DNA from: Euglena gracilis
Taxonomy: Eukaryota
DNA: 64,000 nt
NCBI GenBank assembly: GCA_039621445.1
Contig: CP154954.1
Location: forward strand, 124,001 to 188,000
Direction of reading: 5' to 3'
The notes under the pieces are model-generated. The model was not told the origin of the DNA. It saw nothing but the letters and a program-made list of their open reading frames with translations, and ran no database searches. The position numbers and the translations under genes are program-made. Shown here one piece after another: positions 24,793 to 58,590 of the stretch (positions are counted from its first letter, which is position 1; each line of letters opens with the position of its first letter).

Positions 24793-26618
24793 ATGACATT
24801 AGATGTATCAATTAGTACGTTACGAAGTTGCTTTTAGTTTATTAGGTATAAGTTAAAATAAAAGATAAGAAATAAAATTTTATTTATGTGTTTTTTTTAA
24901 GTTAAGTAAATTTTCCTTAAATTGTATGTTTTTGGCTATTCATATTAATTAAAAAATTGGTTAATCTAATTGGTTAATCTTAATATTTTCAATAATTTGT
25001 TAATAAGTTTAGTAATTTTTCAAGTAGAACGTAAATAGGTTTTATTTTGGATTTTTTTTTAATAAAGAATAAACTTTTGACATATTTTTATTTAAAATTA
25101 AATGTTTAAGCTGTATGTTTTTTTTTACTTGTACAGTTTTTTAAGAGAAATTTTAGTTCGCTAATATATTTCTTTTTTCATTAAATTCTAGTTTAAATCT
25201 TTTTTCTTGAGTATTTATTTTTCAAAAGTTAATTTTTTAAATAATTTTCGTTTTTGGTTATTTTATTCTCTTTTTTAAACTTTTCTGTATGAAAAGTAAA
25301 ATTATTTTATTTTTTGGTAATTGAAATTTATTTATTATTTTAGTAGACCAATAAAAGCAAAGAGAATAGGTTTTAATTTAATTTTCTATAAATTTTTATT
25401 CTAAAGAAAATTTTACATTTTAGTTTTAATAAGTCTTGTTTTAGAGTTTTATATAATATAAAACAACCTAACCTTTTTTGCGATAGTATGTTGAAAAGCT
25501 AAATAAATCAACAATTTTTGTTTAGTTTGTGAATAAAATTTTCAAAATTGAATTTATATTTTCTACTTTACTTATTCCTGAAAGAGTTTTTTGGGAAAAA
25601 AGAGTTGAAGAAATTATTCTTCCTACTTTAAGTGGTCAGATGGGGGTTCTTAAAGACCATGTGTGACACATTATTAAAACGTTTGTTAATTTTATTAATT
25701 ATAATTTTTTGATAAATGCTTGTTTGAGATTTAACTTTACTTTTACTTTTAACCATATTAGTTAATTATTTTTATTTTCTGCATTAACATTTTGTTTGTG
25801 CGTGGTAGCTTTGAATATTTTCTAAAATTTAAAATTTACTTTTTTATAAATTATTTTTTATAAATAAGAAAAATTTAAAATTTTAAGATTAATATAATTT
25901 ATAGTTTATTTTGAAAATGTATATTTAAGTCTTGTTTTAGAAGAATATATTTAAACTGTTATTTTATAACTATTTAAAGTGTTTTTACATGTTTTAGAAA
26001 AAATTTTTAATAGTTTTAATTTTTTTAAAAACAATACTTGATAAACATAATTTGTAAGATATAATATTTGAATCTAAAAAATTTTTAAATTTGTATGCAA
26101 TGGTAAGGAATGTGTATTTTTATGTAAATTATTTACAAAATTTTTGTTTTTTTTTAGTACTTTTGATTCTATCACAATTTAGTTTTAGTCAATTTTTAAG
26201 CAAATTTTAAAAGATTTTTTGTTAAATGCCGTATGAGATTTAAATCTCCCGTACTGTATTGTTGGGGAAAAAATTAACTTAATTTATTAATTTTTAATGA
26301 TAAATTTTTTTCTATCTAAATATTCCAATATTGACTGGATTAGATATAGGTATAATCTTAGTTCGTCAAAAGTCTTCTTCCGATTGGACTAGTTTGGTTG
26401 TAACAGGAGGTTTTGCATTAATTAATAGCAATAACGTTACTATATTAGTCAATGAAGCAGAATTTGGTTCCGAAATTAATGTAGAACAAGCACAGATTTC
26501 TTATAATTCATCTAAACATGCTTTAGAAATGAATAAAGATATTAAGAGAAAATTTGAATTAACTTTAAATTTAAAAAAAGCACGTGCTAGATTCCAGGTC
26601 ACTCAACTTAAAAAGTAG
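24793..26618 (+). CDS. atpE: ATP synthase CF1 epsilon; exons about 24793-24814, 25573-25660 and 26322-26618
   Basis: MTLDVSI|IPERVFWEKRVEEIILPTLSGQMGVLKDH|IPILTGLDIG...LKKARARF. Confidence 0.94.
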
Positions 26619-26889
26619 TTTAATTTATTGTTTTATTAAATTATACGTTTTTAATTTATGTTGATAGATTTTTTATAATAAAAATTTTTTCAATTATTAA
26701 TAGTTTAAAATTATGTTTTGTTTATAGTATATTATTACTTAAACTATAAAATAGTGTAGTTAGTGTATTGAAACTGACAGTTTGATTTAAACGTTTTTGG
26801 TTTCGATTCACTCATTTATTCTTTAATTTAATTAAATTAAAATTCAAAATTCGACTTTTAGGCAAGAATTTAAGTAAAAAAAAAATGTT

Positions 26890-27620
26890 ATGTTATCCGA
26901 ATATGATAATCTAAACTTTGAAAAGAGCGTTGAAGGTAAAGGTTCTTTTCTTAATAAAAACCAAATAGAATCTTATTTGGCCTTACGAAAAAAGAAAGGA
27001 AAAATATATAATTTAGATTCTGAATTTTGGCGTGCTTTTTGTGAATCTCACAATATTAATATGGAATCTATTTTAAATTTATATATATCGAATAAATCTA
27101 TTTCTAGTAAGGATTGTTAAAATACTATCTTATATTGTTGGACGAGATTACCTTAAAGGCAGAACCGCTAACTTTTATGCTTACATTAAAGTGGATAAAC
27201 GATTAGATACGCGCTCGACTCGTTTTTTGGATTTGAGATTAAAAAAAGACTGTGAAGAGGTTACAGTTTGTGGAAATTATAGCGCAGCTAAGTCAGAAGA
27301 ATATTCTATCGATTATATAATAAAAATGGTTTTAAGTCAGAGAGCATATGGTATACAAGATTTTACTGATTCGTTAGTAATTAGTCCGTGTTTGTCTGTA
27401 AAATTAGATGATCATTACCAAATGTTGTCACTTTGGAACCGCATGATAAAACTAGCTGAAAAAGGCAATATTTTTAAGGCTCTATCTCTTTTAAAAAAAG
27501 AAAGGCCAGATTACTACATCAAAAAAATTCTGTTTAGCTTTGTAGCAATTAAAAAAAAATTTAAATGCAATTTTTATGTCTTTTAAAAATGATAAAAAAT
27601 TAAATAGGGAGGTTTTATGA
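26890..27620 (+). pseudogene. Degenerate geminivirus-like Rep paralog (ORF A), frameshifted; copy 1
   Basis: YIVGRDY...AYIKVDKRLDTRSTRFLDL...GNYSAAKSEEYSIDYIIK...RMIKLAEKGNIFKALSLLKKERPDYY. Confidence 0.65.
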
Positions 27621-28839
27621 ATTTATTAAATACGAACAAAAATAACATTGATAATAATATGAGACGTATTTCATCAAAAAAAGTTTTTTTAACCTATTCT
27701 TATTGTTCCGCAGATCTTTCAGAAATTTTAAATTTTTTTAAAAATAAATTTGAAGTAAAATATGGACTAGTTGATTATGCGTTGGTAAGATAGTTTCATA
27801 AAACCGGATACCCTCATGTACACTCATATTTCGTTTTTATTAAAAAAATAGACACTAAGGCAGCAAATTTTTTTGATATATATGTTGATTCTAAAACTTA
27901 TAGTGCATATGTTCAAACAGTTAATAACGAGAAAGATTTGTTGGACTATTTAACAAAACAAATATTTAACTTTGTAGATGCTTCAAAAAATTTCATGGCT
28001 TCTCCATCAATTTTGAAAAAGTATGGTAAATATTTTGAATATTGTCCATTAGAAGAAAGGATGATTGAATTAGCAAAAAAAGGAGAGATAGCGGATGCTA
28101 TGTTGTTGTTTGAAAAAGAAAAACCTTCTGAATTTGTATATAAAGGTGATGCTATTGAAAAACGACTTAGAAACATATATTTAAGCACAAGGTTAGGAGT
28201 TAAAGCAAAAATTAATTTTAATGACTATGTGATACCTCGAGATTTAAGGTGGATGTTAGACATTTATGAATCTTATCTGAATATGGGTGAAAATAAAGTA
28301 TTTTTAATTTTAGGCGGTGAGCTTAGGTATTTAATAGATTTTTTTGAATCTTATTTGCAATTCAAAGGCTTTTATCTTCTAGTAGTTAAGGAAGCTAAGG
28401 ATTTACTGCGATTTAGAAATACTTGTCATTACGATGCGATAATTTTTTCAGACTCTAGCATTTTAGAGTATCAAAATGTAGATGAGCTAAAAAATTTATT
28501 TAACTCTTTAGAAACAACGTTAAAAGTTCATAATCGAAAAATAGTGTTAAAGTACTTTTATCTCCTGCTTTACCAAAAGCTATAATGTCGTCAAAACCTT
28601 ATAAAGTTTTGGAACAATTTTTTAAAGAAAAAGGAATTGAAATGGAAGGCATACTACCTTATCAATTAAATGCCGATGATAAATTACTTCCCCCACATTT
28701 TCATAATTCAGAAATGGAAAAATCAAAGGAATACAGAGAACTTGAAAGTAAAACTAAAGTTTATATTCAAGAATTCTTAAAAAAAGCTAATATGAATGAT
28801 GAAAATGAAGGAAATGATAATCAAAAAAATACTAATTAA
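27617..28839 (+). pseudogene. Geminivirus/pCRESS-like HUH Rep with degenerate SF3 helicase (ORF B); copy 1
   Basis: FLTY, R*FHKTGYPHVH (TAG at 27791), FFDI and YLTK; the extra 1-nt homopolymer frameshift near 28540 is absent in copy 2. Confidence 0.8.
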
Positions 28840-29446
28840 TACGTTTTTATTATATGTTATTATTTTATTAGTAATAAAAATATTACTAATTTGTTATTTG
28901 TTATAAATATGTTATATTTATTCTAGGGCGGAAAATTAGTGGTAACATTAATTTGTTAAAAAATGCCTCTTGACATCAAAAGTTCGAATTAATTTTGAAA
29001 AGCATGAGGCATTTTTTTAACAATTATTTTAAGTTTAATAAAACTTAAAATTTTTTTTTAATAAATTTTTTTTTTTCTGTCCGCCCGGAGAATAAAAAAA
29101 TTTAGAAAATTATTGCTCTATTATTTTTGGGAGAATAAAATGAACAATTCAAAAACAAAACTTCAAAAAAAAAAATAAAGTTCGCTGAGAATAAAATACC
29201 AGCGGACACGTTTTTGTTATTTTTTTTTATAAATTTTTTATTAAAATTATTATAAATATTATTACTAGTATAATTATTATCAAATTAATTTTTATTTTAT
29301 TGCTAACTTGTTATTAAATTGTTATTAAATAGCTAATTTGTTGTATGAGCATTAAGCGTTAAATTAATTGGGTAGGTCAACAATAAACTATTGTTGAAAG
29401 AATATAGTTATAGTTAATTGGACAAATTTTTTATGGGAGAATAATT

Positions 29447-31177
29447 ATGGTTCAAAAATTAAGAAAAAAATACAAATTCAAAATTAACACCACAAGTTCG
29501 AGATATTATGGTAGTTATAATATAACACGTAATTGGAGAATTTTAATAAGGACAAATTTTCAATCTTTAATAGAAATGGATTATTCTTTTATTAAAAAAT
29601 GGCATGCAATAATAAACGACGATAAAATTTCTTTTATTATGTATACCATATGCAAATACGTGGATTTTCAGAAAGAAACCGATATTTTTATTAAAGCTTA
29701 CCTCGAACTAAAGAAAAATTGTCGGCCAAAATATTTAGAAGACTTGTTTAGTTTTGATAAAAATACAATTATAAGTATCGAAAAAGCTAAAGGGGATAGT
29801 CCTGGCAATGTTGGTGGTTTTATTATTAATTGCCGAGACCCCGAAGAGGAACTTTTTTGGAATAGAATACCGCGCTATGAATCTAAAAATAATAACTGTT
29901 TAAGTTTTAAATTTATTACTCAATATAATTTAATTGAGAAAGCAAGGGGAAATTATTTTCTACCTAAAATTTTCCTTGAAGTTTTAAAAAAAGGTCCGGA
30001 AGAGATTGATAAAGAAAAAAGAAAAACTGTTTTAGCAAAAAAAATCGATAATGACGAAGAAATAGAAAAAATAGAAATAAAAAAAGAAAAACAATTTGAA
30101 ATTAAGAGCTTTTTCGAGGATTCAGAATTTTTAGCAATAACCGAAAAATATACAAAAAAGTGTGAGGATTTAATAAATATTAACAATAAAGGGAAAAAAA
30201 TAAGAGATTTATTTTGCAATTATATTTTAGAATTATTAATTCTAGAAATAAATATTTTAAATTCTCAAAGTAAACCAAAATATTCGGATGTTTTTATTTG
30301 TAATTAAAAAAAAAAAAAGAACAATAATGAAATAGAGTGGTATTTTAATTGGATGTCTATTGATAGAATCCTTAAACAATTTTTATATAAATCAATTAAA
30401 CCGTGGCAAAATAAAAATATTGACGATATTAATCAAGGAGAAATTTATAATATAATTACTAATAAATCACTTACAGATAATACAATAAATTCTGTTAAAC
30501 GTTCTTTTCAAAATAGATTGAATGAAAATGTTAACTTAACGAACGTAAGAAAATCATACAAAAAAATAAAATTTGTTTCGTTTAGTTTAACTAAGTTTTA
30601 TAGCAATGAAAATAACGTTTTTTTTGTAAAATTAAAAATTGAGATTTTCGTATGTGATAGTTTTAATACTAGCCTTATAAGAGATTTTCTTAATTTAATT
30701 ACAAGTGAAGATATTCTATGGATAATGTATTCGGTAGAACCTGTAATATTAATACATACTGATTCCAAAGATAAAATTCTTCAAGAGACATATCTAAAAT
30801 TAGAATGTAAAGCAGTAAAATCACAGCTATATTTAAATATATATGTGATATTTGATGAAAAAAGAGTATGGACTAAAAATTTAGTTGAAAGCTTTTTTTC
30901 TACTATTAAAAATGATAAAATTTTAAATATATCAAACGTACCAAAACTAGGAGGTCTTTGTTTTTGTTATGTTCTTAATAACCTTTTGCTAAAAGCAAAT
31001 AAAAAAAATCAATTAGCTGAAATTAAAATATATCAGCATACAAAATATGAAATTCCTTCCAAATATAAAATCAAATTTATCAACGAATCGCCATTATTTT
31101 TAAGAGAATATACTGGGTCTTTGAACTTCTTATATATTTTACTTAGTATGTTACTAGATAATATAACTAATAAATAA
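29447..31177 (+). CDS. Uncharacterised ORF C with degenerate circovirus-type Rep domain(s); split into 286 and 274 aa in copy 1
   Basis: Same sequence as the 576-aa ORF at 47734-49464 but broken at a poly-A run near 30305. Confidence 0.7.
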
Positions 31178-32042
31178 TTAAGTTATTATATTATTCCATT
31201 AAAATTTTTTAAAGTCCACCAAGAATAAAATTCTAGTGGACACGTTTGTTATTAAATTGTTATTATTAGTATAATTATTATAAAATTATTTAATTAAAAA
31301 TATAAATAATTTAGTTAGCTAGTTGTTATTAAAATGTTATTAACTTTTTTAAAGTTCACCGAGAATAAAATCCTAGTGGACACGTTTTTGTTTGTTTAGT
31401 TGGTTTTAGTTTAAGGTCAGCAGGAACAACTTTTATAACCTTTTATTATGGTATCGTACTTTAATAAATCTAAATTTAAGGAATTCTGCAACATATTCTA
31501 AAGATAAAGGGCATTTTGGAGATGTAAGAAATACTTTCCTAGCTGACAGTCGGTATTTAGCGTTTTTACCAACGTTTTTTTCAAATTTATTAAAGGAACT
31601 TTTCTTTGATTTTACTTTTTTCTAACGTAATTTTTTGATTAGTTTTATTTGGAGTTATAACCTATTATTAATCTATTAACCTATTATTAATCTATTAACT
31701 TATTATTATATTATTATTATTATTAGGGGCAATTTACTTAGCAAATTCTCGGTCGTTACTGACAAAACGGGGTATGGTTTTGTAAACATTAACCACGCAA
31801 TAACACAATCACAATATTGCACTAATAACTTAAAAAAGTCACTCACATGATATTATTACTAAATAAATGTAATCTGCCTCAGGCAAACGGTTTTGAACTA
31901 TGTGTATGAAAAGTAATGAGAATTCTTTACAATTAAAGGGATGTAACATGTAAATCGTTAAATACGACTGCATACAACTCCTATTTAAGATACTATGTAC
32001 GGGAAATAAGCAAAAATAATACATTATACAAGGAAACATACT

Positions 32043-32251
32043 ATGGTACGTAAAAAGATATATTAAATGAAAGGTTAAAAAATTACACAATAGAAACAGA
32101 CGTGTCCCGTAAGGTGAGGCAAAAAGTTGCGTTCCGTTTAGCGGCTAAAAACATATTTTTGATGTATAATAAAGTTTCATCTTCATTTACTGTGGAGGAT
32201 ATTAGTTATTCTTTACTTGAGAAGCTGAAGCCATATGGTGTATTATCGTAG
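32043..32251 (+). pseudogene. Rep N-terminal fragment (ORF D); copy 1
   Basis: FRLAAKNIFLMY motif-I-like segment. Confidence 0.6.
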
Positions 32252-32443
32252 ATACGTATATTGACTGTGAAACTAACGTAACTGACTTATCTAGAGTAAA
32301 AGAAACTAAACGTGAGTATTATATTTTTAGACCTCAAATAGACAAAAATTAGTAGCAAAACTTATTAATAATAATAATGTAAATTATCTATAAATAACTG
32401 TAAAGTGATTTTTCGAATATAATTTTTATTTTATTATTAAAAT

Positions 32444-38010
<5,567 letters not shown>

Positions 38011-38136
38011 TTAAAATAATTTCGTTTTATCTCAAATTTTTTTGAATATTTTTTAGTATTTTTTAAATACGTTAAATTTTATAATTTTTAGAATAATGTT
38101 TAAATTTTTAAGTTCAAAAAGATCTTTTATTTTTTT

Positions 38137-38301
38137 ATGGCGGTTCCAAAAAAGAAAATGTCCAAATCTCGTAGAAACTCAAGGAAAAGTAACTGGAAAA
38201 AAAAGGTGCTTAAAAAAGTTCTTTTTGCTCTTTCTTTAGGAAAATCTTTTGAAGCGAATACTAATGTTAATTTTTCTTTTGGAGACAAATTACCACAATA
38301 G
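38137..38301 (+). CDS. rpl32: 50S ribosomal protein L32
   Basis: MAVPKKKMSKSRRNSRKSNWKKK..., 54 aa. Confidence 0.93.
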   Translation: MAVPKKKMSKSRRNSRKSNWKKKVLKKVLFALSLGKSFEANTNVNFSFGDKLPQ

Positions 38302-38335
38302 TGCTGTGATAATATGTAAAATTGTAATTATTTTT

Positions 38336-39292
<957 letters not shown>

Positions 39293-39403
39293 ATAAGGTT
39301 TTTCTTTGAGATAGGAAATTTCAAAGGACATATTTATATTTTATTAAAAAAATTTTTTAATATAGAATTTTGTTTATTGTTAAATTTATTTTTAGTTATT
39401 TTT

Positions 39404-41529
39404 ATGAAATTAAATTCTATTGAAGTAATAGGTAAGTTATGGATTTCTTAAAAAATTTTTTATATTTATTTTAGATTTATTATGAATCATATAATTTTTT
39501 TAATTTAATTTTTTTAAAAATTTTTTATTTAACTAGAAAATCTTCTATTGCCAAAATAATTCTCTTCCTTCCTAAAGATGGTGGTGGTGAAATTTTGATT
39601 AATGGAGAAAAAGCTTTTAACTATTTGCAGTTGCGAGTTCTAAAAGTCTTTATTTAATTTAAATTAAGATTTAAAAAAAATAAAAAAAAGAAATTTAAAA
39701 TTTAATAATATAATGAAAAAAAATAGTGAAAGGAAGAGTTAATAAGATTTTATTATAATAAATTAAAAAATAATAAATTTTAATTTAATAAAAATTTTCT
39801 AATTTATTATAATAAATTTTTAATAAATTATTATATCAATTTTTTTAATTTATTTAGATTTTAATAGATAATAATATTATTGTCATAATAAACTTTTCAT
39901 TAATACAAAATTTTTATGAAAAAATTATTTTATAAATTTTTGGAATTTTTCAAAATTTCTTATTTATTTATATCAACTAATAATAGAAAAATTGTTAAAA
40001 TAATTTTTTTATAGTTTTTTAGAAAACTAATTATTATTTATAAAATTTTTAAAAAATTTTTATTTTATAAATTGTTGTGTTTTAAAAAGAAAAATATTAG
40101 TTTATCAAATATATTCTTTAAAAATTAAAAGAATTAAAATAGGTATTGATTTTTAATTAAATTTGTTATAAACATTTTTAAAATATAAGAAAATTTAAAA
40201 TGACTAAATATTAGAAAAATTTAAAAATAAAAATAAATGTTTTTTTAACAGGTTAGAACAAATTTTTTAAAAAAATTCTTTTAATTTATCTTTTATAAAT
40301 TAAAAAAAAAAAGTTTAAACTTTTTTATATTTTTGTTTTTATAAAAAGATAAGTATTTTATTATAATATATATTAAATTAATCTTAAACTATTTAAAAAA
40401 CAAATATAAAAATAAATCTAATTATTATTGTTTTTATCTTTTTTATAAAATTTTAATTAAAAGTATTTATGAAAGTTTTCTATTTTTATTTTAATACTTT
40501 TTATGAGCTGATATTATTGATGTTTTTTAACTATAAATTTATAATTTTAATTTTATCAACTAATAATTTTTGAGAAAAAGAATTTTTATGTATTTTTATT
40601 TTTGTTTTTTTAATAACTATTTTTTATTATAATCTAAATTTTTTAATAAATAAAATTGAAAGTTTATCTTCTTTTCTTTTTTTAAAAATTAAAAAATTTT
40701 TTTTTTTTTTTAAATTTTATTAATAAATTGAAAAATATAAGAATTTAAATTTTTTTTATTTTTAGATATTATTTATTTTGATTTTTGTATAGAAAATAAT
40801 TTAAATATGTACTAAATTAAAAAAATATAATAATTAAATTTTTAACTACAAAGTTTAAACATTTTTTTAAAAAAAATTTATTTATTATCAAAATTTTATT
40901 TGTATAAAATAAGTTATTTTAGTAATAATTTTTATTATATTTATAAAAAATTGTACTCAAAATGATGTAATATACTTTTTTTGTTAAAAAAAAAAAAAAT
41001 TTATTTTTTTTTTTATTTATTGTAAAAAATTTTATTTTATGTAAATGTTGCTAATATTAAAATCATTAGCGTTTTTTATAGAAAAGGAAGACAAAAAAAA
41101 AAAAACAGAAAGTGAACGGTTTTTTAACTTAAAAAAATTTATTGTTAAAGAAGAATTAGTTTTGTATATTTAAGTCCTATTTTTTTTTTGTATTAACTTT
41201 GTAAACTATTTATTACATAAGTTTTTCAAATATTTTTTCATTAATTATTTCATTTTATAAAAATAGTTGTTTATATTATATAATTTCTTTTTAATTTTAA
41301 AAACAATTTTATTTTAATAATAGGGAAAGTATAGTTTTGTATAATCGTTACAATCTCTAACAATAGATTATTAATTAAAAAAAGAAAATAGTATCATCTA
41401 TTTCAAAAGCTTAATCTTACATTTTTTAATGAAATAAAAAAGATGTTTAGTTTGTAACAGAACTTTTTTCTAGTTTATTAATACGGTTTGAAAAAAGCGC
41501 GCAAAGCGCCACAATTCTCAAAAAGATAG
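39404..41529 (+). CDS. rps9: 30S ribosomal protein S9, multi-intron; middle is low-quality sequence
   Basis: MKLNSIEVIGK|RKSSIAKI...GEILINGEKAFNYLQ and C-terminal GLKKARKAPQFSKR*. Confidence 0.85.
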
Positions 41530-41626
41530 AATCTTCTTATTTTTTAAGAATAACTTCTTAATAGGTATATGTAAAAATTTTTGTAGAAAAATTTTATTTT
41601 TTTATTATTGAAGAATTATTTTTATT

Positions 41627-41935
41627 ATGTCAACAGAAAGATGAAATTTTAGAAAGACTTAAAAAATTACTTTACTAGAAGCTTACGAGCTAGTTAAACA
41701 AATTTTGGGGTTTTGTAAAAAAATTTTATTTTTTAGCTTTTATTATTATATTTTTAAAATAATATTTTTTTTATTTTTAGGATTTAGAATATTATTACTT
41801 TTTTGAAAATAACTTCGGTGTTGTTGCTACTATTACTTTGTCAGCCAGTAGTAGGATTCCATCTATTTTACCTTCTAAAGCGGATGATACTGTAGTGCTG
41901 GAAAAAACTGAATTTTATATTATCATCAGAAAATG
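41627..41935 (+). CDS. rpl12: 50S ribosomal protein L12, 5' part, error-laden and truncated
   Basis: MST...EILERLKK...LLEAYELVKQI, then ENNFGV and EKTEF after a short intron. Confidence 0.65.
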
Positions 41936-44621
41936 AAACATTTTCTTTTTTTAAGTCCGTAGTTTAAAACAACTAAAAATCTTATTGAAACTTAAAAAAT
42001 CTTAAATTTTTCTAGAAATTAAAAATTTAAACTAAATTAAAAAATCAAAAATATTAAATAAAATTAGATAAAAAAAATTATTTTTATTTATTTATAATAG
42101 TTTTTCAAATTTATTGATTTTTTTATTATTAAAATTTAAAGAAAGTTCTATTTTAATAAATAAAATATCTATTGGTTTATAAAAAGATAAATTATTCTTA
42201 TTAAAAAGACATTATTTTTAGAAAAATAAATAAATTTTGAAATAATGTATTTTTTTTTTATTTAAAATTTTAACTTATAAAGAAACTTTAAATAATATTT
42301 ATTTTTATTCTTACTCACTTATATTGTTTTTATTATTTTAAAGATTTTATCTTTTAAAAACAATTTTTTTAATTTATTTAATTTTGTAAAATTTTATTTG
42401 AGGAATTAAAAAGTTATTTTATAAAAAAATTTCATAAATTTTCATGTTGTTTACTTTTATTTTCATTAAAAAAAATATGTTTTATTTCATTAGAAACTAA
42501 TAATTTTTTTCTTTTTAATTAAAAATTAAATATATTAAAAAATTTTTTATTGTTTTTTTATATTTTGTTGTATTTGTTTTGATTAAGAAGCAAAAAATCA
42601 ATAAATAGTTTTTTTTCAAATATAAAAATATTATTAACTTATAATATACAATTTTTTAGAAAAATTTTAATTAAATCTTTTTTACAATATTTGATAATTT
42701 AAAAAATAAAATAAAATTTTCTAATTAATTAAAATATATATTAAAATAATTTCTTATAATGTTTTATTATAAAATAAAGACAATTATTAAAAAAAATCGT
42801 AGTTATGCTATTTTAATAGAAACTACTTGTAAAACAAGGAAAGATTACATCACATAACTTTTTAATTAAGATCACTTAAATTGTTATTGTAGCTTCTGTT
42901 TAGCATGACATAATTTGTTTATTTATTAACGAGGGTCTTATAAATTGATCTATTTATATGTAAAATTGAAGGTAAAACCATAAGAAATCTAAAAAGAACC
43001 ATGGTTCGTTTAATAATTTAGTTTCGAATGGATGACTTATATTCCACCTCACGTGATGAATTTATCAGAAACTCTTCAAAATTAATCAGTTAAAAATTAT
43101 GTCAGGTCTTTACAAATAAATGAATTAATTTAAATGTATCTTGTTAAGCATTGGATATAAATCTATAGACCAGTAATTTTTAATTATTTTATTCATGAAA
43201 TAAATCGAAAATCATAGTTTTAAGAAACGCTATTAATAGTCGTGATATTGGCAAATCATATTAAATTTAAGTATAAACTATACAAAAATGAAGCAATTTT
43301 TGATATAAAATTTTTATATGTTACTCACGGAAACATTAGTAAGGTCATTTAACTTCACTAGATTTATTTAGTCTATAATAATTATATTTAGCATATTTAG
43401 ATTGATTGTAAAAGAACCAATAAACTGCATTTTCATCTATAAAAAATATGATAGTTCATCGGATGCTATCAATGAAATGAAGCTTGTTCGCATCTAATCT
43501 TTGGAAGAGTTTCCAAAGTCTGAGTAAACAGTTTCTTTACAAATTGCGTATCTATTTCATAGTCTATTCTACGCAAATTTTAAACAAATACTGTAACAGT
43601 TAAAGCAGATTCATTTGCTATTTTCCACTTTTGTTTAAATGTAAAAAAATTCCGAATAACTAAACTATTGTTAAAATTATCACAACGAAATCGAACATTT
43701 TACGCAGAAGGTCTAGACATATTAATAATAAGAATAAGGTTATCAAATATGTACATATATAAAATAGATAAGAATTAAAATTTTGTTACGATGGAAAATT
43801 TAATGAATGGCTTTTACGAATGCTGATTATAGAATACGTGGCCAGATCTAAGTTACTTTACTGAGATATTATTATCTAGTACTAATGACTTTAAATACTT
43901 ACTAAAATTCTGACAAAGATACTATGCATACAGATAATTAACTACAATTTTATTTACTTAACATTATGCCTTTAATGACTTTTAATATTTTTATAAATAG
44001 AATCAAAACAAAATAATGCTTGTTTGAGATTTAACTTTACTTTTACTTTTAACCATATTAGTTAATTATTTTTATTTTCTGCATTAACATTTTGTTTGTG
44101 CGTGGTAGCTTTGAATATTTTCTAAAATTTAAAATTTACTTTTTTATAAATTATTTTTTATAAATAAGAAAAATTTAAAATTTTAAGATTAATATAATTT
44201 ATAGTTTATTTTGAAAATGTATATTTAAGTCTTGTTTTAGAAGAATATATTTAAACTGTTATTTTATAACTATTTAAAGTGTTTTTACATGTTTTAGAAA
44301 AAATTTTTAATAGTTTTAATTTTTTTAAAAACAATACTTGATAAACATAATTTGTAAGATATAATATTTGAATCTAAAAAATTTTTAAATTTGTATGCAA
44401 TGGTAAGGAATGTGTATTTTTATGTAAATTATTTACAAAATTTTTGTTTTTTTTTAGTACTTTTGATTCTATCACAATTTAGTTTTAGTCAATTTTTAAG
44501 CAAATTTTAAAAGATTTTTTGTTAAATGCCGTATGAGATTTAAATCTCCCGTACTGTATTGTTGGGGAAAAAATTAACTTAATTTATTAATTTTTAATGA
44601 TAAATTTTTTTCTATCTAAAT

Positions 44622-44918
44622 ATTCCAATATTGACTGGATTAGATATAGGTATAATCTTAGTTCGTCAAAAGTCTTCTTCCGATTGGACTAGTTTGGTTG
44701 TAACAGGAGGTTTTGCATTAATTAATAGCAATAACGTTACTATATTAGTCAATGAAGCAGAATTTGGTTCCGAAATTAATGTAGAACAAGCACAGATTTC
44801 TTATAATTCATCTAAACATGCTTTAGAAATGAATAAAGATATTAAGAGAAAATTTGAATTAACTTTAAATTTAAAAAAAGCACGTGCTAGATTCCAGGTC
44901 ACTCAACTTAAAAAGTAG
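44622..44918 (+). CDS. atpE: ATP synthase epsilon, last exon only (duplicate)
   Basis: Same as 26322-26618. Confidence 0.9.
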   Translation: MPILTGLDIGIILVRQKSSSDWTSLVVTGGFALINSNNVTILVNEAEFGSEINVEQAQISYNSSKHALEMNKDIKRKFELTLNLKKARARFQVTQLKK

Positions 44919-45189
44919 TTTAATTTATTGTTTTATTAAATTATACGTTTTTAATTTATGTTGATAGATTTTTTATAATAAAAATTTTTTCAATTATTAA
45001 TAGTTTAAAATTATGTTTGTTTTATAGTATATTATTACTTAAACTATAAAATAGTGTAGTTAGTGTATTGAAACTGACAGTTTGATTTAAACGTTTTTGG
45101 TTTCGATTCACTCATTTATTCTTTAATTTAATTAAATTAAAATTCAAAATTCGACTTTTAGGCAAGAATTTAAGTAAAAAAAAAATGTT

Positions 45190-45907
45190 ATGTTATCCGA
45201 ATATGATAATCTAAACTTTGAAAAGAGCGTTGAAGGTAAAGGTTCTTTTCTTAATAAAAACCAAATAGAATCTTATTTGGCCTTACGAAAAAAGAAAGGA
45301 AAAATATATAATTTAGATTCTGAATTTTGGCGTGCTTTTTGTGAATCTCACAATATTAATATGGAATCTATTTTAAATTTATATATATCGAATAAATCTA
45401 TTTCTAGTAAGGATTGTTAAAATACTATCTTATATTGTTGGACGAGATTACCTTAAAGGCAGAACCGCTAACTTTTATGCTTACATTAAAGTGGATAAAC
45501 GATTAGATACGCGCTCGACTCGTTTTTTGGATTTGAGATTAAAAAAAGACTGTGAAGAGGTTACAGTTTGTGGAAATTATAGCGCAGCTAAGTCAGAAGA
45601 ATATTCTATCGATTATATAATAAAAATGGTTTTAAGTCAGAGAGCATATGGTATACAAGATTTTACTGATTCGTTAGTAATTAGTCCGTGTTTGTCTGTA
45701 AAATTAGATGATCATTACCAAATGTTGTCACTTTGGAACCGCATGATAAAACTAGCTGAAAAAGGCAATATTTTTAAGGCTCTATCTCTTTTAAAAAAAG
45801 AAAGGCCAGATTACTACATCAAAAAATTTGTAGCAATTAAAAAAAATTTAAATGCAATTTTTATGTCTTTTAAAAATGATAAAAAATTAAATAGGGAGGT
45901 TTTATGA
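45190..45907 (+). pseudogene. Degenerate geminivirus-like Rep paralog (ORF A), frameshift near 45410; copy 2
   Basis: The 76-aa ORF continues in the +1 frame into ILSYIVGRDYLKGRTANFYAYIKVDKRLDTRSTRFLDL...IDYIIK; its stop overlaps the ORF B start (ATGA). Confidence 0.65.
45892..45900 (+). promoter_or_regulatory. Shine-Dalgarno sequence of ORF B
   Basis: AGGGAGG a few nt upstream of the ATG at 45904. Confidence 0.65.
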
Positions 45908-47127
45908 ATTTATTAAATACGAACAAAAATAACATTGATAATAATATGAGACGTATTTCATCAAAAAAAGTTTTTTTAACCTATTCTTATTGTTCCGCAG
46001 ATCTTTCAGAAATTTTAAATTTTTTTAAAAATAAATTTGAAGTAAAATATGGACTAGTTGATTATGCGTTGGTAAGATAGTTTCATAAAACCGGATACCC
46101 TCATGTACACTCATATTTCGTTTTTATTAAAAAAATAGACACTAAGGCAGCAAATTTTTTTGATATATATGTTGATTCTAAAACTTATAGTGCATATGTT
46201 CAAACAGTTAATAACGAGAAAGATTTGTTGGACTATTTAACAAAACAAATATTTAACTTTGTAGATGCTTCAAAAAATTTCATGGCTTCTCCATCAATTT
46301 TGAAAAAGTATGGTAAATATTTTGAATATTGTCCATTAGAAGAAAGGATGATTGAATTAGCAAAAAAAGGAGAGATAGCGGATGCTATGTTGTTGTTTGA
46401 AAAAGAAAAACCTTCTGAATTTGTATATAAAGGTGATGCTATTGAAAAACGACTTAGAAACATATATTTAAGCACAAGGTTAGGAGTTAAAGCAAAAATT
46501 AATTTTAATGACTATGTGATACCTCGAGATTTAAGGTGGATGTTAGACATTTATGAATCTTATCTGAATATGGGTGAAAATAAAGTATTTTTAATTTTAG
46601 GCGGTGAGCTTAGGTATTTAATAGATTTTTTTGAATCTTATTTGCAATTCAAAGGCTTTTATCTTCTAGTAGTTAAGGAAGCTAAGGATTTACTGCGATT
46701 TAGAAATACTTGTCATTACGATGCGATAATTTTTTCAGACTCTAGCATTTTAGAGTATCAAAATGTAGATGAGCTAAAAAATTTATTTAACTCTTTAGAA
46801 ACAACGTTAAAAGTTCATAATCGAAAAAATAGTGTTAAAGTACTTTTATCTCCTGCTTTACCAAAAGCTATAATGTCGTCAAAACCTTATAAAGTTTTGG
46901 AACAATTTTTTAAAGAAAAAGGAATTGAAATGGAAGGCATACTACCTTATCAATTAAATGCCGATGATAAATTACTTCCCCCACATTTTCATAATTCAGA
47001 AATGGAAAAATCAAAGGAATACAGAGAACTTGAAAGTAAAACTAAAGTTTATATTCAAGAATTCTTAAAAAAAGCTAATATGAATGATGAAAATGAAGGA
47101 AATGATAATCAAAAAAATACTAATTAA
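45904..47127 (+). pseudogene. Geminivirus/pCRESS-like HUH Rep with degenerate SF3 helicase (ORF B); one frame of 408 codons with an internal TAG at 46078
   Basis: Motif I FLTY (45973), motif II PHVH (46099-46110), GRS-like NFFDI, motif III YLTK (46234), Walker-B-like YDAIIFSD (46717). Confidence 0.82.
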
Positions 47128-47204
47128 TACGTTTTTATTATATGTTATTATTTTATTAGTAATAAAAATATTACTAATTTGTTATTTGTTATAAATATGT
47201 TATA

Positions 47205-47385
47205 TTTATTCTAGGGCGGAAAATTAGTGGTAACATTAATTTGTTAAAAAATGCCTCTTGACATCAAAAGTTCGAATTAATTTTGAAAAGCATGAGGCAT
47301 TTTTTTAACAATTATTTTAAGTTTAATAAAACTTAAAATTTTTTTTTAATAAATTTTTTTTTTTCTGTCCGCCCGGAGAATAAAA
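47205..47385. repeat. Nested inverted repeats (also at about 28917-29097)
   Basis: Outer TTTATTCTAGGGCGGA / TCCGCCCGGAGAATAAA; inner TTGTTAAAAAATGCCTC / GAGGCATTTTTTTAACAA; adjacent ATTTTAAGTT / AACTTAAAAT hairpin. Confidence 0.85.
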
Positions 47386-47463
47386 AAATTTAGAAAATTA
47401 TTGCTCTATTATTTTTGGGAGAATAAAATGAACAATTCAAAAACAAAACTTCAAAAAAAAAAT

Positions 47464-47506
47464 AAAGTTCGCTGAGAATAAAATACCAGCGGACACGTTT
47501 TTGTTA
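47464..47506 (+). repeat. Hairpin repeat, unit 1 of 3
   Basis: AAAGTTCGCTG-AGAATAAAATAC-CAGCGGACACGTTTTTGTTA; also at 29178. Confidence 0.85.
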
Positions 47507-47733
47507 TTTTTTGTTATAAAGTTGTGATTAAAATCATTATAAATATTATTACTAGTATAATTATTATCAAATTAATTTTTATTTTATTGCTAACTTGTTA
47601 TTAAATTGTTATTAAATAGCTAATTTGTTGTATGAGCATTAAGCGTTAAATTAATTGGGTAGGTCAACAATAAACTATTGTTGAAAGAATATAGTTATAG
47701 TTAATTGGACAAATTTTTTATGGGAGAATAATT

Positions 47734-49464
47734 ATGGTTCAAAAATTAAGAAAAAAATACAAATTCAAAATTAACACCACAAGTTCGAGATATTATGGTA
47801 GTTATAATATAACACGTAATTGGAGAATTTTAATAAGGACAAATTTTCAATCTTTAATAGAAATGGATTATTCTTTTATTAAAAAATGGCATGCAATAAT
47901 AAACGACGATAAAATTTCTTTTATTATGTATACCATATGCAAATACGTGGATTTTCAGAAAGAAACCGATATTTTTATTAAAGCTTACCTCGAACTAAAG
48001 AAAAATTGTCGGCCAAAATATTTAGAAGACTTGTTTAGTTTTGATAAAAATACAATTATAAGTATCGAAAAAGCTAAAGGGGATAGTCCTGGCAATGTTG
48101 GTGGTTTTATTATTAATTGCCGAGACCCCGAAGAGGAACTTTTTTGGAATAGAATACCGCGCTATGAATCTAAAAATAATAACTGTTTAAGTTTTAAATT
48201 TATTACTCAATATAATTTAATTGAGAAAGCAAGGGGAAATTATTTTCTACCTAAAATTTTCCTTGAAGTTTTAAAAAAAGGTCCGGAAGAGATTGATAAA
48301 GAAAAAAGAAAAACTGTTTTAGCAAAAAAAATCGATAATGACGAAGAAATAGAAAAAATAGAAATAAAAAAAGAAAAACAATTTGAAATTAAGAGCTTTT
48401 TCGAGGATTCAGAATTTTTAGCAATAACCGAAAAATATACAAAAAAGTGTGAGGATTTAATAAATATTAACAATAAAGGGAAAAAAATAAGAGATTTATT
48501 TTGCAATTATATTTTAGAATTATTAATTCTAGAAATAAATATTTTAAATTCTCAAAGTAAACCAAAATATTCGGATGTTTTTATTTGTACTTATAAAAAA
48601 AAAAAGAACAATAATGAAATAGAGTGGTATTTTAATTGGATGTCTATTGATAGAATCCTTAAACAATTTTTATATAAATCAATTAAACCGTGGCAAAATA
48701 AAAATATTGACGATATTAATCAAGGAGAAATTTATAATATAATTACTAATAAATCACTTACAGATAATACAATAAATTCTGTTAAACGTTCTTTTCAAAA
48801 TAGATTGAATGAAAATGTTAACTTAACGAACGTAAGAAAATCATACAAAAAAATAAAATTTGTTTCGTTTAGTTTAACTAAGTTTTATAGCAATGAAAAT
48901 AACGTTTTTTTTGTAAAATTAAAAATTGAGATTTTCGTATGTGATAGTTTTAATACTAGCCTTATAAGAGATTTTCTTAATTTAATTACAAGTGAAGATA
49001 TTCTATGGATAATGTATTCGGTAGAACCTGTAATATTAATACATACTGATTCCAAAGATAAAATTCTTCAAGAGACATATCTAAAATTAGAATGTAAAGC
49101 AGTAAAATCACAGCTATATTTAAATATATATGTGATATTTGATGAAAAAAGAGTATGGACTAAAAATTTAGTTGAAAGCTTTTTTTCTACTATTAAAAAT
49201 GGTAAAATTTTAAATATATCAAACGTACCAAAACTAGGAGGTCTTTGTTTTTGTTATGTTCTTAATAACCTTTTGCTAAAAGCAAATAAAAAAAATCAAT
49301 TAGCTGAAATTAAAATATATCAGCATACAAAATATGAAATTCCTTCCAAATATAAAATCAAATTTATCAACGAATCGCCATTATTTTTAAGAGAATATAC
49401 TGGGTCTTTGAACTTCTTATATATTTTACTTAGTATGTTACTAGATAATATAACTAATAAATAA
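47734..49464 (+). CDS. 576-aa uncharacterised ORF C with degenerate circovirus/nanovirus-type Rep domain(s)
   Basis: Long intact ORF preceded by GGGAG; RNWRILI...IKAYLELKKNCRPKYLEDLF...ISIEKAKGDS resembles the Viral_Rep pattern without catalytic residues. Confidence 0.75.
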   Translation: MVQKLRKKYKFKINTTSSRYYGSYNITRNWRILIRTNFQSLIEMDYSFIKKWHAIINDDKISFIMYTICKYVDFQKETDIFIKAYLELKKNCRPKYLEDLFSFDKNTIISIEKAKGDSPGNVGGFIINCRDPEEELFWNRIPRYESKNNNCLSFKFITQYNLIEKARGNYFLPKIFLEVLKKGPEEIDKEKRKTVLAKKIDNDEEIEKIEIKKEKQFEIKSFFEDSEFLAITEKYTKKCEDLININNKGKKIRDLFCNYILELLILEINILNSQSKPKYSDVFICTYKKKKNNNEIEWYFNWMSIDRILKQFLYKSIKPWQNKNIDDINQGEIYNIITNKSLTDNTINSVKRSFQNRLNENVNLTNVRKSYKKIKFVSFSLTKFYSNENNVFFVKLKIEIFVCDSFNTSLIRDFLNLITSEDILWIMYSVEPVILIHTDSKDKILQETYLKLECKAVKSQLYLNIYVIFDEKRVWTKNLVESFFSTIKNGKILNISNVPKLGGLCFCYVLNNLLLKANKKNQLAEIKIYQHTKYEIPSKYKIKFINESPLFLREYTGSLNFLYILLSMLLDNITNK

Positions 49465-49497
49465 TTAAGTTATTATATTATTCCATTAAAATTTTTT

Positions 49498-49680
49498 AAA
49501 GTCCACCAAGAATAAAATTCTAGTGGACACGTTTGTTATTAAATTGTTATTATTAGTATAATTATTATAAAATTATTTAATTAAAAATATAAATAATTTA
49601 GTTAGCTAGTTGTTATTAAAATGTTATTAACTTTTTTAAAGTTCACCGAGAATAAAATCCTAGTGGACACGTTTTTGTTA
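49498..49680 (+). repeat. Hairpin repeat, units 2 and 3
   Basis: AAAGTCCACCAAGAATAAAATTCTAGTGGACACGTTT and AAAGTTCACCGAGAATAAAATCCTAGTGGACACGTTT; also at 31211 and 31351. Confidence 0.85.
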
Positions 49681-49948
49681 TTTTTATTGGTTTTAGTTTA
49701 AGGTCAGCAGGAACAACTTTTATAACCTTTTATTATGGTATCGTACTTTAATAAATCTAAATTTAAGGAATTCTGCAACATATTCTAAAGATAAAGGGCA
49801 TTTTGGAGATGTAAGAAATACTTTCCTAGCTGACAGTCGGTATTTAGCGTTTTTACCAACGTTTTTTTCAAATTTATTAAAGGAACTTTTCTTTGATTTT
49901 ACTTTTTTCTAACGTAATTTTTTGATTAGTTTTATTTGGAGTTATAAC

Positions 49949-49992
49949 CTATTATTAATCTATTAACCTATTATTAATCTATTAACTTATTA
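49949..49992 (+). repeat. Short 19-bp tandem repeat
   Basis: (CCTATTATTAATCTATTAA) x2 plus a partial copy; also near 31660. Confidence 0.75.
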
Positions 49993-50328
49993 TATTATAA
50001 TTAATAATAGGGGGCAATTTACTTAGCAAATTCTCGGTCGTTACTGACAAAACGGGGTATGGTTTTGTAAACATTAACCACGCAATAACACAATCACAAT
50101 ATTGCACTAATAACTTAAAAAAGTCACTCACATGATATTATTACTAAATAAATGTAATCTGCCTCAGGCAAACGGTTTTGAACTATGTGTATGAAAAGTA
50201 ATGAGAATTCTTTACAATTAAAGGGATGTAACATGTAAATCGTTAAATACGACTGCATACAACTCCTATTTAAGATACTATGTACGGGAAATAAGCAAAA
50301 AATAATACATTATTCAAGGAAAACTACT

Positions 50329-50538
50329 ATGGTACGTAAAAAAGATATATTAAATGAAAGGTTAAAAAATTACACAATAGAAACAGACGTGTCCCGTAAG
50401 GTGAGGCAAAAAGTTGCGTTCCGTTTAGCGGCTAAAAACATATTTTTGATGTATAATAAAGTTTCATCTTCATTTACTGTGGAGGATATTAGTTATTCTT
50501 TACTTGAGAAGCTGAAGCCATATGGTGTATTATCGTAG
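50329..50538 (+). pseudogene. Rep N-terminal fragment (ORF D); copy 2
   Basis: AFRLAAKNIFLMYNKV...LLEKLKPYGVLS*. Confidence 0.62.
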
Positions 50539-50730
50539 ATACGTATATTGACTGTGAAACTAACGTAACTGACTTATCTAGAGTAAAAGAAACTAAACGT
50601 GAGTATTATATTTTTAGACCTCAAATAGACAAAAATTAGTAGCAAAACTTATTAATAATAATAATGTAAATTATCTATAAATAACTGTAAAGTGATTTTT
50701 CGAATATAATTTTTATTTTATTATTAAAAT

Positions 50731-56295
<5,565 letters not shown>

Positions 56296-56421
56296 TTAAA
56301 ATAATTTCGTTTTATCTCAAATTTTTTTGAATATTTTTTAGTATTTTTTAAATACGTTAAATTTTATAATTTTTAGAATAATGTTTAAATTTTTAAGTTC
56401 AAAAAGATCTTTTATTTTTTT

Positions 56422-56586
56422 ATGGCGGTTCCAAAAAAGAAAATGTCCAAATCTCGTAGAAACTCAAGGAAAAGTAACTGGAAAAAAAAGGTGCTTAAAA
56501 AAGTTCTTTTTGCTCTTTCTTTAGGAAAATCTTTTGAAGCGAATACTAATGTTAATTTTTCTTTTGGAGACAAATTACCACAATAG
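56422..56586 (+). CDS. rpl32: 50S ribosomal protein L32; copy 2
   Basis: Same as 38137-38301. Confidence 0.93.
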   Translation: MAVPKKKMSKSRRNSRKSNWKKKVLKKVLFALSLGKSFEANTNVNFSFGDKLPQ

Positions 56587-56620
56587 TGCTGTGATAATAT
56601 GTAAAATTGTAATTATTTTT

Positions 56621-57576
<956 letters not shown>

Positions 57577-57687
57577 ATAAGGTTTTTCTTTGAGATAGGA
57601 AATTTCAAAGGACATATTTATATTTTATTAAAAAAATTTTTTAATATAGAATTTTGTTTATTGTTAAATTTATTTTTAGTTATTTTT

Positions 57688-58590
57688 ATGAAATTAAATT
57701 CTATTGAAGTAATAGGTAAGTTATGGATTTCTTAAAAAATTTTTTATATTTATTTTAGATTTATTATGAATCATATAATTTTTTTAATTTAATTTTTTTA
57801 AAAATTTTTTATTTAACTAGAAAATCTTCTATTGCCAAAATAATTCTCTTCCTTCCTAAAGATGGTGGTGGTGAAATTTTGATTAATGGAGAAAAAGCTT
57901 TTAACTATTTGCAGTTGCGAGTTCTAAAAGTCTTTATTTAACATTTCCAAGTTAAGGGAAAAAAAATAATCTCGTTTATTTAAATTTTATTATTGATTTT
58001 TATTTAATAATTTTTAAGCATTTAATAGATTTATTATTTTTTAATTTAATCCTAAAGATGATAAATTTCGAGTTAATAATTGAATTTAAATTAAGTTTAA
58101 GATAACAGTTGAAATTTTTAATAAAGTTAAATCGATATTAATATAGTTGCACATATTAATATACTAATATACTTCTTGGATAGAAATTCTTTTTAATTTG
58201 AAATCAAAATATTCAAATTTACCTTAGACGTAAGAACTAAATTTTTTTATAATTTTTATATTTTATTCGAAAGACTTTCTTTAAATTATGATATACAAAT
58301 ATAAAAAAGTAAATGATAGATTATTAAACATTGTTATAAATTATCTTTATTGTTCATAAAATTTTAATTAAGGAAGTATTTATGAAAGTTATTCTATTTT
58401 ATTTTAATAAACTTTTTATGAGCTGGATACATTTATTGATGTTTGTCCAGTTCTTTTGAGGGAAATAATTTATCAATTTTATTTTCTATCAACTAATAAC
58501 CTTCGTTGAGAAAAAGAATTTTTAAAATGTTATTTTTAATTTTTGTTTGTTTAATAAACTATTTTTTTATATATTTTTTCAAGTACAACT
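57688..58590 (+). CDS. rps9: S9, 5' portion, cut by the fold-back
   Basis: MKLNSIEVIGK|RKSSIAK...NYLQ| followed by a group II intron. Confidence 0.85.

Follow-up and report, generated by a model that had tools for sequence, protein, structure and literature searches.

HUH-type replication initiator proteins (Reps) replicate circles by nicking an origin hairpin, and plasmid-derived Rep genes occur in the plastid genomes of diatoms and red algae. The locus described here, the open reading frame (ORF) named ORF B, lies in the plastid DNA of Euglena gracilis, within a stretch of 64,000 nucleotides (contig CP154954.1, positions 124,001 to 188,000, forward strand) which is referred to as the window and whose numbering is used for all coordinates. 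The systems to which it can be compared include the geminivirus Reps (PF00799), for which the domain structures 6q1m and 6we0 of wheat dwarf virus and 1l2m of tomato yellow leaf curl virus are available. The metal triad consists of Glu110, His59 and His61 in the Rep of wheat dwarf virus and of Glu48, His57 and Gln59 in that of porcine circovirus 2 (PCV2), according to PMC7826260. In the mitochondrial genomes of Phytophthora a Gemini_AL1 Rep-like relic, related to the Reps of red-algal plasmids, was read as an integrated plasmid (Liu et al. 2011, PMC3198968). The Replitron transposases, which are helicase-less Y1 Reps, are described in PMC10288648 as having a one-Tyr HUH nuclease with an adjacent helical oligomerisation-like domain. 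We propose, with a probability of roughly three in four, that ORF B is the recently inactivated relic of a Rep whose helicase was already dead, that it is one of several relics left by small Rep-only circles in the spacer between atpE and rbcL, and that it was expressed in the plastid for a time.

ORF B is situated between atpE, which ends at 44918, and the rbcL exons. Its whole frame runs on the forward strand from the ATG at 45904 to the TAA at 47125-47127 and comprises 407 codons with a single in-frame TAG, codon 59, at 46078..46080. While this one stop interrupts its own frame, 24-62 stops are found in each of the five remaining frames over this region, and the probability of the stop-free run of 348 codons after the TAG is approx. 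1.7e-15 at this base composition. Thus ORF B is a real coding sequence, or was one until very recently. A profile hidden Markov model (HMM) of 22 relatives matched both sides of the stop in the same frame. The 58 N-terminal codons (45904..46077), which include motif I, FLTYSYC (45973-45993), covered model positions 5-55 with an E value of 7.6e-10 (frame match 45895-46077), and the remainder (46081..47127) covered positions 58-378 with an E value of 3.8e-58. The standard ORF list contains only a 58-codon ORF (45904-46080) and a 300-codon ORF starting from the TTG at 46225, hence the original prediction was right in stating that the list misses the N-terminus. The frame and the TAG that it gave could also be reproduced; however, translation from the ATG at 45904 yields MNLLNTNKNNIDNNMRRISS..., and the peptide quoted in it starts at the internal Met15 (45946).

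In the alignment with the relatives the column of the TAG is Glu in 23/23 cases, eight residues before motif II, just where a conserved Glu had been expected, and the origin of the stop by the suggested G-to-T change would fit this column. Since the alignment of ORF B to the relatives is colinear across the stop, an intron cannot hide it. The gene atpE of the same window ends in TAG, therefore this codon is read as a stop in this DNA. The TAG was indeed found in both copies of a large direct repeat, at 27791-27793 in copy 1 and at 46078-46080 in copy 2, but the copies are not independent. The repeat units (25715-39657 and 44015-57941) share 13,948 aligned nucleotides with 99.48% identity, 46 mismatches and 13 gap openings, and in the 1.75 kb around ORF B and its upstream neighbour, ORF A, there is no substitution and only three indels (one of 12 nucleotides and one of a single base in each of two A-runs). 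Because the copies share the repeat without substitution around ORF B, the second TAG does not count as independent evidence. In copy 1 of ORF B (27617..28836, forward strand) the same TAG is accompanied by a one-base deletion in an A-run, which shifts the frame after codon 310. More telling is that an identical 58-residue N-terminal ORF ending at the TAG has been called on 8 other public contigs, so the TAG did not arise as an error in assembling this contig. The hypothetical protein AKL82394.1 (333 amino acids) of Euglena gracilis var. bacillaris starts 16 codons past the TAG, and an exact look-up placed the part of ORF B after Met127 in the same cluster. The relation to Rep stayed hidden because the annotated ORFs begin after the TAG and thus do not include the nuclease motifs.

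For the family assignment a read-through query of ORF B (P0001), with X placed at the TAG, was used. Against Pfam it matched Gemini_AL1 with 32.2 bits (the cut-off being 24; E 1.2e-7) over residues 17-115, and against the protein chains of the PDB phmmer found the nuclease domain of wheat dwarf virus Rep, 6q1m (E 2.7e-6), in which the X was aligned to the Glu of RELHEDG. The proposed geminivirus Rep nuclease pattern was thereby borne out, as the read-through N-terminus passes the cut-off of Gemini_AL1 and matches solved Rep domains. A HMMER scan of 1.84 billion representative proteins gave 355 relatives at E<=1e-3, 77 at E<=1e-10 and 8 at E<=1e-30, this last set including the window's own pieces. 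Full-length relatives (P0003, P0004, P0005, P0008 and others) are 30-34% identical to ORF B over residues 16-390. ORF B was aligned with 25 relatives (alignment A2, 26 rows), 24 rows of which matched Gemini_AL1, and the profile of this alignment recovered the PDB structures 6q1m (3.7e-27), 1l2m (1.5e-22) and 7vg8 (1.6e-21). The relative P0003 is grouped with Cressdnaviricota Rep clusters in the ESM Atlas. No match to ORF B was obtained among 72,556 plasmid records of PLSDB and no family in NCBIfam; the sole match in PHROGs, phrog_12510, was not significant (E 0.099), and word-index protein searches returned, beyond the window's own pieces, only P0006 and P0007. On the basis of these comparisons ORF B is assigned to the Gemini_AL1 family.

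Motifs I (F24-C30), II (HxH) and III (YxxK) are all kept in ORF B, in the same order and with the same spacing as in geminivirus Rep. Motif II, HVH (46102-46110, forward strand), contains His67 and His69, whose columns are His in 23/23 relatives, and motif III, YLTK plus a Gln (46234-46248, forward strand), contains Tyr111, Lys114 and Gln115, the first two of which are invariant in 24/24. The two His and the catalytic Tyr are therefore intact, as had been claimed. The intact relatives resemble geminivirus Rep also in a geminivirus Rep sequence (GRS)-like FHGNYQ block and in an acidic residue four positions after the Tyr. Unlike geminivirus Rep, to which it is only approx. 25-30% identical, ORF B has the stop in place of the invariant Glu, Gln at the Tyr+4 position and a degenerate GRS-like block. 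The Tyr+4 residue, which corresponds to the third metal ligand, Glu110, of wheat dwarf virus Rep, is Asp or Glu in 19/22 intact relatives. The HGNYQ block, the geminivirus counterpart of which is FHPNIQ, has His in 20/23, Gly in 21/23 and Asn in 17/23 relatives, and reads SAYVQ in ORF B (46186-46203, forward strand). Gln is able to bind metal in HUQ-type Reps, and Gln115 by itself is no proof of nuclease inactivity. All the same, to call ORF B a complete nuclease hidden by one TAG was an overstatement, considering the Gln at Tyr+4, the degenerate HGNYQ block, the lost catalytic residues of the helicase and the fragmentary state of all close relatives. Judged from its sequence, the locus most likely makes no working nuclease today.

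The segment after the nuclease, which had been described as oligomerisation-like, proved to be a linker block conserved across the Rep family in alignment A2 (46360-46425, forward strand). The SF3 helicase that follows is dead in all of its motifs, which lie on the forward strand. In Walker A (46600-46623, GGELRYLI) the residues Gly238, Lys239 and Ser/Thr240, each present in 22/23 rows, are replaced by Tyr, Leu and Ile, respectively. In Walker B (46726-46743, IIFSDS) Asp278 (22/23 rows) is replaced by Ser while Asp279 (22/23 rows) is kept, and in motif C (46870-46884, SSK) Ser stands for Asn326 (20/21 rows). The Arg finger is absent (46921-46938, M-E), Arg343 (20/21 rows) and Arg344 (21/21 rows) being substituted by Met and Glu. 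Accordingly, ORF B does not show the set of features of a full CRESS-DNA-type Rep, i.e. Walker A GxxxxGK[ST], Walker B hhhDD, the Asn of motif C and the Arg finger. Gemini_AL1_M does not match ORF B; this domain gives a weak match in 3/26 family members. The identities of the domains between ORF B and 22 intact relatives were compared with those of the relatives inter se. The values were 33% versus 39% for the nuclease, 31% versus 30% for the linker and 21% versus 36% for the helicase. By this comparison of sequences the helicase of ORF B appears to have been relaxed from constraint earlier or more fully than the other domains.

The nearest intact relatives of ORF B are the Reps of Rep-only minicircles from metagenomes (P0003, P0004, P0005, P0016 and others; L001 and L081 at the DNA level), which have the same three-part architecture of HUH nuclease, linker and SF3 helicase and match it with E values down to 1.3e-43. 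A tree was constructed by a quick method from 55 rows (the full-length hits of at least 300 amino acids among P0003-P0069, and fragments), and it placed ORF B in the same subfamily, a group of 14 rows with a support of 84. Unlike ORF B, the minicircle Reps have kept Walker A, Walker B, motif C and the Arg finger intact; they begin with a basic extension, are not preceded by a Shine-Dalgarno-like site and reside on free circles of 1.6-2.4 kb. The contigs of the relatives measure 1.3-2.8 kb, and in case of the nearest intact relatives with readable DNA they are 1.6-2.4 kb circles on which Rep is the sole encoded product. L001 is circular, with a 121-nucleotide terminal repeat, a unit of 2,387 nucleotides and 30% G+C. 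L081 has 1,751 nucleotides and 40% G+C, and its ends overlap by approx. 115 nucleotides with one base differing, as judged by eye (the exact-match test did not flag it). On each of them Rep is the single ORF of at least 120 amino acids. At least one additional large ORF was present in 39/39 of the more distant IMG/VR loci (L002-L040), and that of L002 has an Arg-rich capsid-like start. Metagenome scans recovered no DNA for P0006 and only its own contig, L081, for P0004, and a scan of prokaryote genomes with P0003 found nothing. Two hairpins are candidate origins of these circles. One, at 60-124 of L081, is a strong hairpin just 5' of Rep with a 9-bp stem (GAGGTTATT/AATAACCTC), an 8-nucleotide loop and a z value of -4.4; the other, at 1258-1352 of L001, is a 10-bp hairpin repeated twice. 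An origin motif common to L001 and L081 was not found.

Only three close relatives were present in the collections searched (P0021, P0006 and P0007), and all of them are fragments. P0021 (91 amino acids, identity 48/85) extends across the position of the stop, where it carries Glu; P0006 (89 amino acids) is identical to the linker of ORF B in 79/89 positions; and in P0007 (114 amino acids, identity 74/101) both Walker motifs are dead, Walker A (GSEHRYL) in the same way as in ORF B. A single contig of 1,379 nucleotides bears P0006 and P0007 as distinct ORFs. ORF B, P0006 and P0021 form a clade with a Shimodaira-Hasegawa-like approximate likelihood ratio (SH-aLRT) of 99, the stem of which is long, at 1.56 changes per site. 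Since each of the three is broken, all sampled members of the clade are broken, at different places.

With respect to more distant systems, ORF B is unlike Geminiviridae in having no capsid gene and in residing in a protist plastid chromosome and not in a plant virus. The geminivirus origin TAATATTAC was found in the window twice against 3.9 expected occurrences, thus not above chance, and neither of these lies in a hairpin near ORF B. For an organelle genome that harbours the relic of a Gemini_AL1-type Rep, the Phytophthora mitochondria offer a precedent. From its description that relic, like ORF B, is a truncated Gemini_AL1-type Rep in an organelle genome, but it belongs to an oomycete mitochondrion and ORF B to a euglenid plastid, and Euglena is absent from the accessible passages of PMC3198968. 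The Reps of phytoplasma plasmids were matched by the intact relative P0003 (5 plasmids, 22-26% identity, E 5e-7 to 9e-5) and not by ORF B itself; this relation is distant and the host is bacterial.

ORF B is not the only Rep-derived piece in the spacer. When the HMM of 22 intact relatives was run over all six frames of the window, four such pieces were detected in each repeat copy, namely ORF A, ORF B and the fragments C and D. ORF A (45377..45907, forward strand) is a more decayed Rep relic, which matched HMM positions 45-186 (E 4.4e-32) and alignment A2 by hhalign (probability 99.5%, E 5.8e-23) and had no match in Pfam. It starts ahead of motif II and runs as far as the linker end, the helicase part being absent; both His of motif II are lost, whereas YxxK is retained. 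ORF A terminates in a TGA that shares bases with the start codon of ORF B (ATGA). It is 26% identical to ORF B and up to 34% to the free relatives, and is thus not closer to ORF B. Fragment C (49723..49908, reverse strand) is a Rep N-terminus with motif I (YRLSARKVFLTSPKC), supported by HMM positions 5-45 (E 2e-8) and by hhalign (probability 96.7%, E 3.6e-10). Fragment D (50239..50535, forward strand), the weakest-supported of the four, is a Rep N-terminus with a degenerate motif I (FRLAAKNIFLMYNKV; HMM positions 6-48, E 1.1e-4; hhalign probability 88.1%, E 3.1e-6). Each of the fragments C and D carries the basic leader typical of the free relatives. These spacer ORFs would derive from at least one geminivirus-like Rep-encoding minicircle, and probably from several.

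A Shine-Dalgarno-like GGGAGG is found at 45894..45899 (forward strand), 4 nucleotides 5' of the ATG of ORF B. This hexamer occurs only 3 times in the 64 kb, counting both strands, and two of the three are at the start of ORF B, one per copy. Neither in L081 nor in L001 is the start of Rep preceded by a motif of this kind. The Reps of the free relatives possess a basic N-terminal extension, which ORF B lacks. The rare Shine-Dalgarno-like site and the missing extension would together represent an adaptation of ORF B to plastid translation. Promoter-like sites were at the level of chance (18 found versus 20.2 expected), and terminator-like sites were not found.

The preferred interpretation, that of a relic, involves the following course of events. 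Small Rep-only circles would have replicated through nicking of an origin hairpin by Rep, and such circles would have recombined, possibly more than once, into the atpE-rbcL spacer. ORF B would then have been translated in the plastid for a time, which is suggested because the Shine-Dalgarno-like site is rare, the basic extension is missing and a frame of 407 codons was kept in DNA of 26% G+C. The ATPase activity would have been lost first, with the nuclease and the linker retained, and the TAG would have been a recent knock-out. For the stage following the death of the ATPase the layout of the Replitrons may serve as a working model; the likeness is one of description, and unlike ORF B, which retains a dead helicase domain, the Replitrons are nuclear transposons without helicase remnant. 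As is characteristic of an organelle-integrated Rep relic, ORF B has native plastid genes on either side and is broken, while its homologs on free circles (L001 and L081) are intact.

Several observations weigh against this interpretation. One stop in 407 codons means that decay has barely begun, and this would fit also a gene which is partly in use. The retention of nuclease motifs I-III together with the loss of the helicase motifs is unlike uniform neutral decay. A working translation unit would likewise be expected to have a Shine-Dalgarno-like site and an ATGA overlap such as the one between ORF A and ORF B. The fragmentary state of the relatives may in part be accounted for by contig ends. 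Finally, ORF A and ORF B could be independent insertions or the products of an old in-situ duplication, and the tree decides for neither.

A bolder version, which we regard as unlikely, is that the lineage of ORF B was domesticated in euglenid plastids as a helicase-dead Rep consisting of nuclease and oligomerisation parts, was translated from a Shine-Dalgarno site of its own and was long under selection. In that case the TAG of the sampled Euglena gracilis contigs would merely conclude this history, other species of Euglena would have intact orthologs with which plastid DNA is still nicked, and the abundant Rep-only circles of 1.6-2.4 kb would belong, as plasmids or viruses, to euglenids or to euglenid plastids.

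It is likewise unlikely, to a very similar degree, that the part of the frame past the TAG, for which annotations give 281 or 333 amino acids, is translated from an internal start and that its linker and ATPase-dead domain are useful, e.g. as a DNA-binding or oligomerising factor. The length of the stop-free run with its very low chance probability would support such a protein, as would the linker, which is as conserved as among the relatives and is 89% identical to P0006, and public annotation already calls the part after the TAG a gene. However, no start with a ribosome-binding site is present after the TAG, the available ones being the TTG at 46225, ATT and an internal ATG; the same region is split or truncated on the contig of P0006 and P0007, and the ATPase residues are lost. 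The excess of linker over helicase identity in these two fragments (79/89 versus 74/101, Fisher p 0.0096) is not robust either, as without the last 11, probably frame-shifted, residues of P0007 the latter value becomes approx. 72/90 by recount and the difference then appears far weaker.

Translation through the stop is regarded as very unlikely. If the TAG were read through or recoded at some rate, a full-length protein with nuclease and linker would be made and may nick plastid DNA, and the single stop, the intact nuclease motifs and the good ribosome-binding site before the ATG at 45904 agree with this. Yet atpE ends in TAG and none of the ten tRNAs within the window has a CUA anticodon (the scan covered the window), which makes readthrough improbable from the sequence. 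Moreover, the lost residue is invariant and the acidic residue at Tyr+4 is gone, too. We know of no recoding or RNA editing in euglenid plastids.

The least probable explanation is that the gene is intact in nature and that the TAG either arose in sequencing or assembly or is a mutation confined to a single laboratory line. It draws on the odd build of the window with its large direct and inverted repeats and on the homopolymer indels between the copies, which are typical of long-read errors, but it is opposed by the 8 other contigs, by the var. bacillaris ORF beginning just past the TAG, by a substitution not being the usual type of long-read error and, as a weaker point, by 19 runs from several studies which, among the runs listed, contain at least half of the sampled words of the stretch. 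None of the listed runs with such words is recorded as RNA, which speaks neither for nor against transcription.

The surroundings of ORF B contain further features. Between ORF B and fragment C there is an orphan ORF of 576 codons (ORF576; 47734..49464, forward strand), which is uninterrupted in copy 2 and falls into two parts in copy 1 (29447-30307 and 30353-31177). Its cluster mate is UniProt P31920, 'Uncharacterized 35.4 kDa protein in rbcL-atpE intergenic region' of Euglena gracilis, and public records have it as pieces of 295 and 274 amino acids in one Euglena gracilis record and as 586 amino acids in var. bacillaris. ORF576 has no family in Pfam, PHROGs or NCBIfam, no relative beyond itself and no capsid-like match in Pfam or PHROGs. 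A relation to Rep was considered and dropped, as the comparison with Rep showed none; ORF576 may be cargo of the same insertion. Two hairpins follow the stop of ORF B, a perfect 10-bp stem at 47155-47178 with AAATATTAC inside the stem and another at 47251-47300 with the stem AATGCCTC/GAGGCATT. The former was rejected as an origin, given that AAATATTAC is in the stem and that similar hairpins are common in the window. There are 53 perfect 10-bp hairpins in it, those near ORF B being ordinary for this DNA, and both hairpins after the stop look like ordinary plastid 3' stem-loops.

The window is plastid DNA of approx. 23% G+C with exon pieces of rbcL, petB, atpB and psbB as well as rpoC2, rps4 and ten tRNA genes. 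In addition to the direct repeat it contains the arms of near-perfect palindromes (53199-57314/59885-64000, 17025-18570/19162-20707 and 57780-58569/58630-59419), and through the direct repeat and the palindromes the petB and the rbcL exons are each present in three copies. Between the repeat copies, the 4.3 kb at 39660-44010 have 14-20% G+C; short AT-rich tandem repeats are numerous there, and no ORF reaches 100 codons. The layout of the window could have come about through chimeric assembly of long reads from plastid DNA of high copy number, or the plastid DNA could truly be rearranged or amplified.

The present analysis gives an origin to the ORFs that lie between rbcL and atpE in Euglena gracilis plastid DNA and that in public records are only 'uncharacterized' or 'hypothetical'. 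No literature linking these ORFs to Rep was found in a search which did not extend to supplements, where the Rep lists of PMC6668415 may bear on the question. According to a 2021 review (PMC8061765), virus infection of euglenids has had no experimental verification; therefore the spacer relics would document, at the molecular level, the presence of an element of this sort in the euglenid lineage. For the Rep-only circles, known only from metagenomes, the relics of Euglena provide a first lead to a host. Should the bolder version hold, a host would be found for the Rep-only circles and, for the first time, a DNA mobile element of this class for the euglenids, and nicking by the intact orthologs would serve the replication, recombination or copy control of the plastid DNA.

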